64,000 bases of DNA from Myxococcaceae bacterium (GTDB lineage: Bacteria; Myxococcota; UBA727; JABDBI01): assembly GCA_016000045.1 (NCBI GenBank), contig JAECQY010000002.1, positions 95,777 to 159,776 on the forward strand, written 5' to 3'. The position numbers were made by a program, and so were the translations under genes. Numbering within the stretch: the stretch's first letter is position 1; the number at the start of each line of letters is the position of its first letter. This document shows, piece by piece, positions 55,164 to 60,661 of the stretch. The notes under the pieces are model-generated. The model was not told the origin of the DNA and made no database searches. It was given only the letters and a program-made list of their open reading frames with translations.

Positions 55164-55610
55164 GTGATTATTGCGGAAAATCGGCGCGCGAAGTTTGAAT
55201 ACGCCATTTTTGAAACCCTTGAATGCGGAATTGTTTTGCTTGGAACGGAAGTCAAGTCGCTTCGAGACCGACATGTCAATTTCGCGGACTCTTATGCTCT
55301 TCTTAAAAACCAAGAAGTCTTTTTGATCGGACTTAAAATCGAGCCTTACCAATATGGCACCCACGTCAATCATGAAACCGATCGAACTCGAAAGCTTCTT
55401 CTCAATCGATCAGAAATTGAAAAATTAGCAAAAGAAACGGATCGAAAGGGCCGAACACTCGTTCCTCTCAAGCTTTATTTCAAAGAGGGAAAAGCGAAAG
55501 TCTTAGTCGGTGTAGCAGAAGGCAAAACAAAGTCTGATAAACGCGATACCATCCAACAACGAGAAGGAGACCGTGAGATTGCCCGAGTCATGCGTCGAGG
55601 CCAACGTTAA
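55164..55610 (+). CDS. smpB: SsrA-binding protein SmpB
   Basis: 'IIAENRRAKFEYAIFETLECGIVLLGTEVKSLR' is the canonical SmpB N-terminus. Confidence 0.9.
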   Translation: MIIAENRRAKFEYAIFETLECGIVLLGTEVKSLRDRHVNFADSYALLKNQEVFLIGLKIEPYQYGTHVNHETDRTRKLLLNRSEIEKLAKETDRKGRTLVPLKLYFKEGKAKVLVGVAEGKTKSDKRDTIQQREGDREIARVMRRGQR

Positions 55611-55635
55611 GCTCAAAGCTTCCTTATTGACAAAC

Positions 55636-57309
55636 ATGAAAGCCTTTTCAATCCTCATTCTTATGTATTGGATGAAATTTACTTTTATCTTTTTGCTCGT
55701 TTTACCAACCGATTTAGCAATTTCTGCGCGAACTTTCGGCATTATTTCACGAACCCGCTATCAGATTCTCTCCTGTTCAGGAGCCGGGAACAATTGCTTT
55801 TTCCATGCACTCAGGCAAGCGGGAATCGATATCCAGCGCCAAGATGTCATCCATTTTTTAACCCGAAATCGAGAACACCCCACCATACAAACCGCAGTCC
55901 ACCGAGTAGCGGCCCAAGAACTTCTGACATTTTCCGGAGAACTCGAAGCACCCATCCAAGAGTTTCGGGCTTATCTCGAGCAACATCCTTCCGAAGCCAT
56001 GGCTAACCTTGGTTCCAACGAAGATCTTTATTCGTGGTTTGTCGAACATCTTCAAAATGGAAATCCCATGCCGTTCGAGCGAGATTGGCAAGAGCTGCCA
56101 GGTCCTGATTTTTTTGAACTTCTTGGGCAAGCATTTGACTTCGATGTCCAGATTCTGTCTCGTTCCCAGCAGATTCCAAGCCATTACGAAGTCATTCGTC
56201 AATTTCAAACTCCGACTTCAACCCGCAGACGTCACGTTGAATTGCTTTTTCAAGCTGGCGATATAGGTCATTTTGAACTGCTCGTTGATCCAAATGCAGG
56301 AAGCCCGATTCCAGCAACCGTTCAAGATTATTTTCACAATATTATCACGCCCTATACATCGGGCGCTCTTTATACAAATGCTAGCCTTCGGGCAAGCGGA
56401 AATTTTGGACAAATCTTCTATGTCAAAAATCGAGATCGAAGCTACGCTGCGAAATGGGTTATTGGCCAGAATTCGGATTCATTTCGAGCCGAACAAGAAG
56501 CCTTGCGAAGACTGCATTCTCCCTTTTGCAACGGTCTGATTGAACTCTTTGAGAGTTTATACGATGGGAATTACCTACTCCTGCTCGAGTGGGTGGGAGG
56601 AGGAAGTCTCCGCGAAGCCATTAAAACTCAAGAGTTCGAAGACTATCAAGTCGTTGCGATTGCGACTCAACTACTCCTGGCCTTGAAACATATTCATGAT
56701 CAAGGAGTGATCCACTGCGATATAAAACCCCAAAATATTTTGCTGAACCCAGGCGGAAATTATGCGCAAATCTGCGATTTCGGGCTCGCTGAAATCGATT
56801 CAAAGCTCCACAAGCAGGGCGTTTTAAAAGGAAGCCCGAACTACATGGCTCCAGAGGTGATTCAAAACGGAATGATAACTCCCCAAGCGGACATCTGGGG
56901 GCTCGGGGTAACACTCTATCGGCTCTCTTTTAAGCGGCATCCCTATCCGAGTAACACTTTCATGGAGACGAGGGAAAACGTCTGGCAGCCCATCGCATTT
57001 CCAAGATCCCAGCGCTTAACCCCCGTGTTAGAACGCATGTTTGAGACAGACTATCAAAGACGCCCAAGTGCAGAAGATCTCTTGAATGAGCGGCTCATTC
57101 AAGTCTTTTTGACCATGCTTGCTCACGTTGATCCAAGAGTTCCAAGCGAACATCGAGCATCTTACCGCGATCAAATACGGTTGATCGATTGGTCGCAGCC
57201 TATCTCTCAATCCCATCAAAATCCACCGTTTGTGATCGCCGTTAATTACCTTAATGGTTCGTTTACCCTCCTCGTATCTTGGAAAAACTGGACTGCGATA
57301 ACCGAATGA
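55636..57309 (+). CDS. secreted/membrane-anchored OTU-like cysteine protease domain fused to a Hanks-type Ser/Thr protein kinase
   Basis: N-terminal hydrophobic leader, 'SGAGNNCFFHALRQAG' (OTU Cys motif), a candidate His motif 'IGHFELLV', then the kinase subdomains 'YAAKWV','HCDIKPQNILL','DFGLA','GSPNYMAPE','DIWGLGVTLY'. Confidence 0.6.
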   Translation: MKAFSILILMYWMKFTFIFLLVLPTDLAISARTFGIISRTRYQILSCSGAGNNCFFHALRQAGIDIQRQDVIHFLTRNREHPTIQTAVHRVAAQELLTFSGELEAPIQEFRAYLEQHPSEAMANLGSNEDLYSWFVEHLQNGNPMPFERDWQELPGPDFFELLGQAFDFDVQILSRSQQIPSHYEVIRQFQTPTSTRRRHVELLFQAGDIGHFELLVDPNAGSPIPATVQDYFHNIITPYTSGALYTNASLRASGNFGQIFYVKNRDRSYAAKWVIGQNSDSFRAEQEALRRLHSPFCNGLIELFESLYDGNYLLLLEWVGGGSLREAIKTQEFEDYQVVAIATQLLLALKHIHDQGVIHCDIKPQNILLNPGGNYAQICDFGLAEIDSKLHKQGVLKGSPNYMAPEVIQNGMITPQADIWGLGVTLYRLSFKRHPYPSNTFMETRENVWQPIAFPRSQRLTPVLERMFETDYQRRPSAEDLLNERLIQVFLTMLAHVDPRVPSEHRASYRDQIRLIDWSQPISQSHQNPPFVIAVNYLNGSFTLLVSWKNWTAITE

Positions 57310-60480: not shown

Positions 60481-60565
60481 GGTAGTTTCGAGCTAATTTC
60501 TCAAACCGAGTCGCAATGCCTCTCAAGGGTTTCAGTCTCGCGAATAAATTTTCAACAAGATGTCG
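60481..60565 (-). mobile_element. short remnant of an IS5-family (IS427/IS1031-type) transposase C-terminus
   Basis: 'HLVENLFARLKPLRGIATRFEKLARNY' inside ORF 60383-60577 matches the conserved C-terminal 'ERFF.RLKQFRRIATRYEKLA.NY' block of IS5-family OrfB proteins. It lies just 3' of tRNA-Gln. Confidence 0.45.
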
Positions 60566-60587
60566 GTGCTTGTACAAGCTTTGAGCT

Positions 60588-60661
60588 TGGCTGGGGAACT
60601 AGGATTCGAACCTAGATTAACGGAATCAGAATCCGCGGTCTTGCCATTGGACGATTCCCCA
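60588..60661 (-). tRNA. tRNA-Gln (anticodon CUG)
   Basis: Reverse complement TGGGGAATCGTCCAATGGCAAGACCGCGGATTCTGATTCCGTTAATCTAGGTTCGAATCCTAGTTCCCCAGCCA; anticodon loop TTCTGAT; U1-A72. Confidence 0.85.

Follow-up and report, generated by a model that had tools for sequence, protein, structure and literature searches.

Secreted-looking OTU-like genes between smpB and tRNA-Gln in a Myxococcota-labeled bacterium: resident cluster or genomic island?

How did genes for OTU-like proteins, one of them fused to a serine/threonine kinase, come to lie between smpB and an intact tRNA-Gln(CTG) gene in an uncultured bacterium deposited as Myxococcaceae? The locus takes up about 5 kilobases (kb) of the 64-kb stretch of DNA analyzed here, which we call the window. 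An earlier note on this DNA had read it as an island: effector-like genes acquired horizontally next to a tRNA 3' end and in the smpB/ssrA neighborhood, mobilized by an element that has since decayed to a scar of an IS5-family insertion sequence (IS). We find no support for this origin, as the locus has no integrase, no direct repeat and a native composition, and its only trace of a mobile element is a lone IS fragment of 99 nucleotides (nt). Instead, we favor, with a probability of roughly 60%, the reading that this stretch is no recent island and that its secreted, effector-like genes form a lineage-specific cluster which is resident at a site prone to rearrangement.

Island hallmarks and composition of the smpB-tRNA segment

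The anatomy of the segment is as first described: the OTU/kinase genes, a proline-rich (Pro-rich) protein, the IS5 scar and both flanking genes were all found (Table 1). Genomic islands associated with tRNA or tmRNA genes are integrase-mediated, for example those at ssrA next to smpB in enterobacteria. In the segment, we detected neither an integrase nor any other mobility gene: Pfam gives the kinase domain only, and the interval is filled by three genes and the IS fragment. No tmRNA gene (ssrA) was detected by ARAGORN or Rfam anywhere in the 64-kb window, and therefore the argument from the smpB/ssrA neighborhood does not apply here. A direct repeat of the tRNA-Gln 3' end, which integration at this site would lead one to look for, was sought with the tRNA as a query (blastn-short) and by a repeat search over 54.9-61.5 kb; on the strand of the tRNA, both returned chance-level matches only. 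The 13-nt matches that the repeat search found at the tRNA 3' end are in inverted orientation and are discussed with the boundaries of the segment.

The deviation in composition and codon usage that was proposed as a sign of foreign origin is also missing, the comparison being with the 64-kb window only. The guanine-plus-cytosine content (GC) of the segment is 0.452 versus a window mean of 0.470 (standard deviation [SD] 0.025 per gene). This shortfall of about 2 points is in the direction that an island would predict, and only 7 of the 60 sliding 5-kb intervals are lower still. The three segment genes have GC of 0.449-0.463 and GC at third codon positions of 0.41-0.45 (window means 0.470 and 0.466, SD 0.025 and 0.050). 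Their codon-usage deviation B, 0.206-0.303 versus a window median of 0.305, is low, like that of other long housekeeping genes. Dinucleotide deviation (delta*) exceeds that of the segment in 22/60 intervals, and the tetranucleotide correlation (r 0.934) is poorer in 42/60. Thus, the segment does not stand out from the window in GC or in its use of codons, dinucleotides and tetranucleotides. Elsewhere in the window, two small open reading frames (ORFs) on the minus strand, at 13084-13587 and 44660-45157, are more atypical than the proposed island, with GC of 0.395 and 0.408, high codon deviation and no Pfam family.

An internal fragment of an IS5-family transposase beside the tRNA

The short ORF next to the tRNA opens with LYKHRHLVENLFARLKPLRGIATRFEKLARNY, 10 nt beyond the tRNA-Gln 3' end and on the same strand. 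Searched with phmmer against 5.8 billion proteins, the fragment gave 63 matches to DDE transposases at approximately 80% identity over 33 amino acids (aa; best E 2e-7), and it matches positions 214-245 of the 258-position NCBIfam model NF033580 'IS5 family transposase' (transpos_IS5_3; E 9e-9). Owing to the small size of the piece, the Pfam models DDE_Tnp_1 and DDE_Tnp_1_2 respond weakly (E 0.004-0.007) and under their gathering scores. The C-terminal Y-(2)-R-(3)-E-(6)-K region around the catalytic Glu is present as YKHRHLVENLFARLK. Thus, the remnant of about 30 aa reported 3' of tRNA-Gln is real, in place and significantly similar to IS5-family transposases; what has to be corrected is its description as their C-terminus. 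With three of the transposase matches as tblastn queries (E 8e-14), similarity is restricted to the 99 nt of the fragment. Full-length relatives run 13-20 residues further after LARNF/Y, and none of the reading frames of the window holds an IS-like continuation after LARNY when compared with the C-termini of the relatives. The similarity thus runs out 13-20 residues short of the usual C-terminus, and what is left is an internal piece that includes neither end of the IS. On the 5' side the cut lies no more than about 10 nt from the tRNA, on the 3' side ahead of the natural stop, and the fragment is flanked by the tRNA on one side and by a non-IS spacer on the other.

A genuine IS5 fragment that adjoins a tRNA 3' end speaks for an island at first sight. 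Even so, a single internal fragment of 99 nt cannot have mobilized the genes. A complete IS5 element, with a full transposase, terminal inverted repeats and a target-site duplication, is absent (33 of approximately 258 codons are left). A tblastn search detected no second IS copy or further transposase piece in the 64-kb window, including the smpB side, where nothing IS-like was seen, and a single fragment does not make a composite transposon, in which two IS copies surround the cargo. Moreover, elements of the IS5 family are not known to choose tRNA 3' ends as specific integration sites or, as single copies, to carry passenger genes, which counts against the island account. In the reading that we favor, the IS5 piece would be a by-product of IS activity in the genome, trimmed by deletion on both sides, and not the vehicle of the genes; deletion toward the tRNA would have halted there because the tRNA is needed.

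The assembly across the fragment deserves a comment. The window is a base-for-base match to a Logan contig of run SRR9332771, and its proteins are deposited at NCBI in a metagenome-assembled genome (MAG) with locus tag I8H75, on a contig of 159.8 kb (proteins MBH1989143-MBH1989146, locus tags I8H75_01975 to I8H75_02000); a second MAG, with protein MBH2006105, holds the same proteins. Logan assemblies use k=31. Contig L001, on the Pro-rich side, ends at 60508, 30 nt into the IS5 fragment, and contig L214, on the tRNA side, begins at 60533. Contig breaks on both sides of the fragment imply that the sample contains further, near-identical copies of about 60479-60562, so the IS is probably now, or was recently, multi-copy in the organism or the community. 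The join of the tRNA to the segment therefore depends on the path taken through this repeat of approximately 84 nt. However, a misjoin is unlikely, because each Logan contig joins unique sequence directly to IS codons and the two NCBI MAGs give the same gene order across the join.

The OTU-like proteins and their family in related genomes

The 557-aa protein has a hydrophobic N-terminus, an OTU-fold domain (about aa 38-225) and a Ser/Thr kinase domain (about aa 254-486; Pfam Pkinase E 1.3e-45), counted from the ATG at 55636. The 772-aa protein has a signal-like N-terminus, an OTU-like domain, a degenerate second OTU-like repeat (approximately 58035-58364 by tblastn) and a C-terminal domain of no known function (aa 631-771). 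The N-terminal domains of the two proteins are paralogs (BLASTP E 2e-8). Pfam OTU and otubain models gave nothing at E <= 10 for either protein, while the relative P0311 has a weak Peptidase_C65 match (E 0.054). Sequence searches against solved structures (PDB, queried with phmmer and with a family profile) gave no significant match to an OTU structure, only nairovirus OTU chains at E 1.4-2. AlphaFold2 run on an alignment of seven N-terminal domains yielded a usable model, with a predicted local distance difference test score (pLDDT) of 77 and a predicted template modeling score (pTM) of 0.72; from the two window paralogs alone, the model was unusable (pLDDT 41). The top 50 Foldseek matches to the OTU-domain model were all OTU, with modest scores (best E 1.4e-3), and the closest solved OTU structures share just 13-20% identity. 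Residues N15, C17, F18, F19, L22, G26, R31, I136, H175 and F176 are invariant in the seven-sequence alignment; C17 and H175, which lie inside NNCFF.AL and HF motifs, are the putative catalytic pair. According to the structural model, the domains in the window have the OTU fold, and the 'OTU-like' label given to them earlier is correct at this level, without a Pfam OTU match.

A hydrophobic, signal-like N-terminal stretch can be read by eye in all three segment proteins and in their relatives, which suggests that the three proteins may be secreted. A deubiquitinase-like activity, on a eukaryotic or other target, is likewise a prediction. The Pro-rich protein belongs to no known family, as described before, and has no Pfam match even at E 10. 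In addition, the C-terminal domain of about 140 aa of the 772-aa protein (59196-59621) is common to the small stand-alone proteins P0309 and P0310.

The family is very small: an exhaustive HMMER search recovered just 8 relatives of the 772-aa protein among 1.84 billion representative proteins. Assembly GCA_040384225.1 encodes the family member P0311 (697 aa), which has the same OTU-like plus kinase architecture as the 557-aa protein and lies on the same 929-kb contig as an SmpB 73% identical to that of the window, about 90 kb apart. Locus L092 of this assembly has three family genes in 12 kb (2140-3933, 7979-9955 and 10001-12094), two of them kinase-fused and in tandem, interleaved with gatC, gatA and genes for a HIT protein, PEPCK and PutA; here the family has expanded locally at a housekeeping locus. 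In GCA_037134495.1, P0307, which shares 30% identity with the 772-aa protein across 590 residues, is encoded beside rpe, HSP70 and lepA. No tRNA gene adjoins the P0311 or the P0307 locus, and the GC of the family loci in relatives (0.43-0.47) is about that of the window. The presence of the family at housekeeping loci in relatives, together with the native composition here, argues against a recent island import. The OTU domains are 22-40% identical between genomes, versus 73-78% for SmpB. Our reading is that the OTU-like genes would make up a small multigene family that evolves fast, occurs only in a clade of about 47% GC labeled Myxococcota and has different housekeeping loci in different genomes.

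Where the family ultimately came from is a separate matter. An ancestor of the clade might have acquired an OTU and a kinase gene from a eukaryote, a virus or another bacterium, after which the genes ameliorated, duplicated and were reshuffled, with the IS fragment and the tRNA as bystanders. OTU domains and Hanks-type kinases are typically eukaryote-like, and the top kinase-domain matches include eukaryotic Nek and MAP3K proteins at approximately 28% identity; the confinement of the family to a few genomes among the representative proteins and its native composition would fit as well. However, no donor can be named, given the low identity to the closest solved OTU structures, and this scenario overlaps with the resident-cluster account, from which it differs in ultimate origin alone, a difference that the present data cannot date. 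We consider it rather unlikely.

Boundaries of the cluster and comparison with known systems

SmpB relatives from a protein search, at 73-80% identity, led to six smpB loci that could be compared with the window (L082, L084, L086, L087, L088 and L090). The segment genes are lineage-specific: none of the six relatives has them after smpB. What follows smpB is ferritin and ExbD/TonB in L082 and L086, a hypothetical gene and an AbiEii toxin in L084, and a convergent AstA gene and then a DEAD helicase in L087 and L090. In L088, the closest relative to offer a usable contig (SmpB 78% identity), the upstream order lspA...AhpC...RsmB is as in the window, with six extra genes, including sucCD, before smpB. 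Neither a tRNA nor a tmRNA gene was found near smpB in these relatives, with no tRNA within 10 kb. On the question of whether smpB lies beside tRNA-Gln elsewhere, the answer is never among the relatives found, but at this level of SmpB identity the genes on either side of smpB are reshuffled, and the answer carries little weight. Wider searches did not bring closer genomes: among the matches listed, a genome-contig scan with SmpB gave only proteins 43-57% identical from unrelated phyla. When metagenome contigs were scanned with the 3' half of the tRNA (28 nt), at least 120 contigs came back, with a best full-length tRNA identity of 89%; none of these encoded relatives of the proteins flanking the segment.

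In the window, the DEAD helicase seen after smpB in L087 and L090 is located at 18.7 kb, beside lspA and 35 kb from smpB. The differing downstream order in every relative examined and the displaced helicase therefore identify the 3' side of smpB as a rearrangement breakpoint in this clade. The helicase locus itself (18094-20421) has lspA and the helicase as neighbors, whereas in relatives lspA is about 7 kb upstream of smpB and the helicase is just downstream, after AstA; this is a translocation with one breakpoint directly after smpB. Separately, in L088 (8656-8693) and L089 (3247-3284), contigs from two or three samples stop 38 nt past smpB, at the G+C-rich palindrome CCCGGGCTTGACCCGGG, which suggests a repeat or a strain-variable region after smpB in L088 too.

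These comparisons also bear on the proposed island, which would have entered the chromosome at the tRNA-Gln(CTG) 3' end or near smpB and whose mobilizing element would have decayed to the IS5 scar. Lineage-specific, effector-like cargo between a tRNA and smpB, missing downstream of smpB in relatives, is what it would predict, but members of the same family occupy housekeeping loci without tRNAs in related genomes. Taken with the hallmarks found to be missing, this makes the island quite improbable, and we advise against annotating the segment as a tRNA-linked island or citing it as a case of recent horizontal transfer.

The gene layout at the breakpoint is compact. The gap between the smpB stop and the ATG of the OTU-kinase gene is 25 nt, the two OTU-like genes overlap at ATGA (start/stop), and the Pro-rich gene is convergent with the second of them, with an 8-nt overlap. 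The tight spacing suggests that the cluster may be transcribed with smpB or straight after it. Promoter-like sites are no more numerous in the region than in shuffled sequence. Past tRNA-Gln are genes for a HEAT-repeat protein, a diacylglycerol-kinase-like protein and MlaE, and the remaining window is core chromosome (GroEL, RpoD, DnaG, HflX, SerRS and cbb3 oxidase). A single 734-aa ORF at 25401-27605 on the plus strand fuses cytochrome oxidase subunit I (COX1/CcoN) with the mono-heme subunit FixO/CcoO. At 47%, the GC of the window is far below that of cultured Myxococcaceae, and the relatives of its SmpB bear no label more specific than 'Myxococcota' or 'Myxococcales'; the NCBI label 'Myxococcaceae bacterium' thus looks too specific.

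Table 1. Features at and around the smpB-tRNA segment (positions in the window)
Feature	Coordinates	Strand	Evidence or remark
RsmB-like methyltransferase, left of smpB	53951-54925	+	
smpB (SsrA-binding protein), left flank	55164-55610	+	Pfam SmpB E 2e-55; identical to NCBI MAG protein 'SmpB [Myxococcaceae bacterium]'
Inverted repeat, left arm (perfect, 13 nt)	55609-55621	+	AAGCTCAAAGCTT; begins inside the smpB stop codon
OTU-fold Cys protease (putative) fused to Ser/Thr kinase, 557 aa	55636-57309	+	Secreted-looking
OTU-like protein 2, 772 aa	57306-59624	+	
Pro-rich protein, 233 aa, no known family	59617-60318	-	ORF list; also called as a gene in a Logan contig
Promoter-like site upstream of Pro-rich gene	60327-60354	-	Consensus match only, 9/12 matches
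Short ORF carrying the IS5 fragment	60383-60577	-	
IS5-family DDE transposase, internal fragment, 33 codons	60479-60577	-	phmmer, NCBIfam, tblastn
Inverted repeat, right arm	60576-60588	-	Begins at the final A of the tRNA CCA and extends into codon 1 of the IS fragment
tRNA-Gln(CTG), right flank, intact, CCA encoded	60588-60661	-	ARAGORN; Rfam tRNA 54.6 bits

The two boundaries share one further feature. The 13-mer AAGCTCAAAGCTT occurs in exactly two copies in the 64-kb window at up to one mismatch, one at each end of the segment and in inverted orientation, so that each flanking gene, in its own direction, is directly followed by the same small hairpin, AAGCT-CAA-AGCTT. We put the probability that two pre-named 30-nt zones share a 13-nt match at about 1e-5, by our own estimate (324 position pairs x 2 orientations x 0.25^13). 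After smpB in the six relatives the 13-mer is not conserved, the sequence there being unrelated. We considered the 13-mer as a conserved terminator after smpB and rejected it: the six relatives differ at this place, and a terminator scan does not call it.

A perfect inverted repeat placed precisely at both boundaries, found nowhere else in 64 kb and not conserved after smpB in relatives, invites the view that 55609-60588 is a discrete cassette with 13-nt terminal inverted repeats; the OTU/kinase genes would then be part of a unit, of a type not yet described, that can invert or transpose. However, we detected no target-site duplication at the repeat and no recombinase or intact transposase inside, and the arms overlap a stop codon and the CCA end of a tRNA, which an inserted element would not supply. 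The repeat is also short, its 10-nt core recurs once inside the 772-aa gene, in Gln-Ala-Gln-Ser codons, and it may be a small 3' hairpin shared by the two genes or a product of chance. We regard such a cassette as highly improbable. The bolder version, in which a cassette of approximately 5 kb shuttles genes for Sec-secreted OTU proteases and kinases between housekeeping loci of the clade, would account for the different place of the family in each genome, and we rate it lower still, as a long shot. The repeat itself could represent the arms of an inversion, a shared 3' element or luck.

Several points weigh against the resident cluster as well. It leaves the perfect inverted repeat at both boundaries unexplained. 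No genome was found that is close enough to show the locus before and after an insertion, and an old, fully ameliorated acquisition is possible. The divergence of the family, set against the conservation of SmpB, makes exchange within the clade as possible as vertical descent. Finally, secretion, co-transcription and enzyme activity are predictions from sequence. Even so, we favor the resident cluster, which would encode three Sec-type proteins (an OTU-fold cysteine protease-kinase fusion, a double OTU-like protein and a Pro-rich protein), would lie at a synteny breakpoint just downstream of smpB and would share a transcription unit with smpB or be read directly after it.

Two lessons follow. 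First, a tRNA beside an IS scar can mimic an island where relatives are too distant for a synteny test. Second, the cargo is more notable than the island: a very small family of secreted-looking OTU-fold proteins, putative proteases that are in some cases kinase-fused, in an uncultured low-GC lineage labeled Myxococcota. This hints that bacteria of a group in which such a thing is not known may interact with ubiquitin-type systems of eukaryotes.

How does the locus compare with known systems? Like tRNA- and tmRNA-associated islands, it has effector-like accessory genes that adjoin a tRNA 3' end and smpB, with a mobile-element remnant at the tRNA junction. Unlike them, it lacks an integrase, an att-type direct repeat and a tmRNA gene, its composition is native, and the remnant is an IS fragment and not an integrase pseudogene. 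With IS5-family insertion sequences the fragment shares the catalytic Glu in its Y-R-E-K region and approximately 80% identity to many transposases; unlike intact elements, it lacks terminal inverted repeats, a target duplication and the N-terminal part, and its length leaves it below family cut-offs. Bacterial OTU deubiquitinase effectors are known from Wolbachia (wMelOTU, 6w9o) and Legionella (LotB/Ceg23, 6ks5; LotA/LotC) (PMC7690952). In sequence, the window proteins gave no significant match to Pfam OTU or to a solved OTU. The window proteins have Sec-type N-termini, whereas those effectors have type IV secretion signals; one of the window proteins is fused to a Ser/Thr kinase, unlike the Wolbachia and Legionella effectors; and the host is an uncultured Myxococcota-labeled bacterium, unlike the hosts of those effectors. 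The variable effector-gene loci of intracellular or predatory bacteria consist of fast-evolving paralogous families, with tandem duplicates and non-syntenic positions. Such loci differ from ours in that the 64-kb window has no dedicated secretion system, but in other respects the OTU-like family resembles them: its members are fast-evolving paralogs, some are tandem duplicates, and their positions are non-syntenic between relatives.

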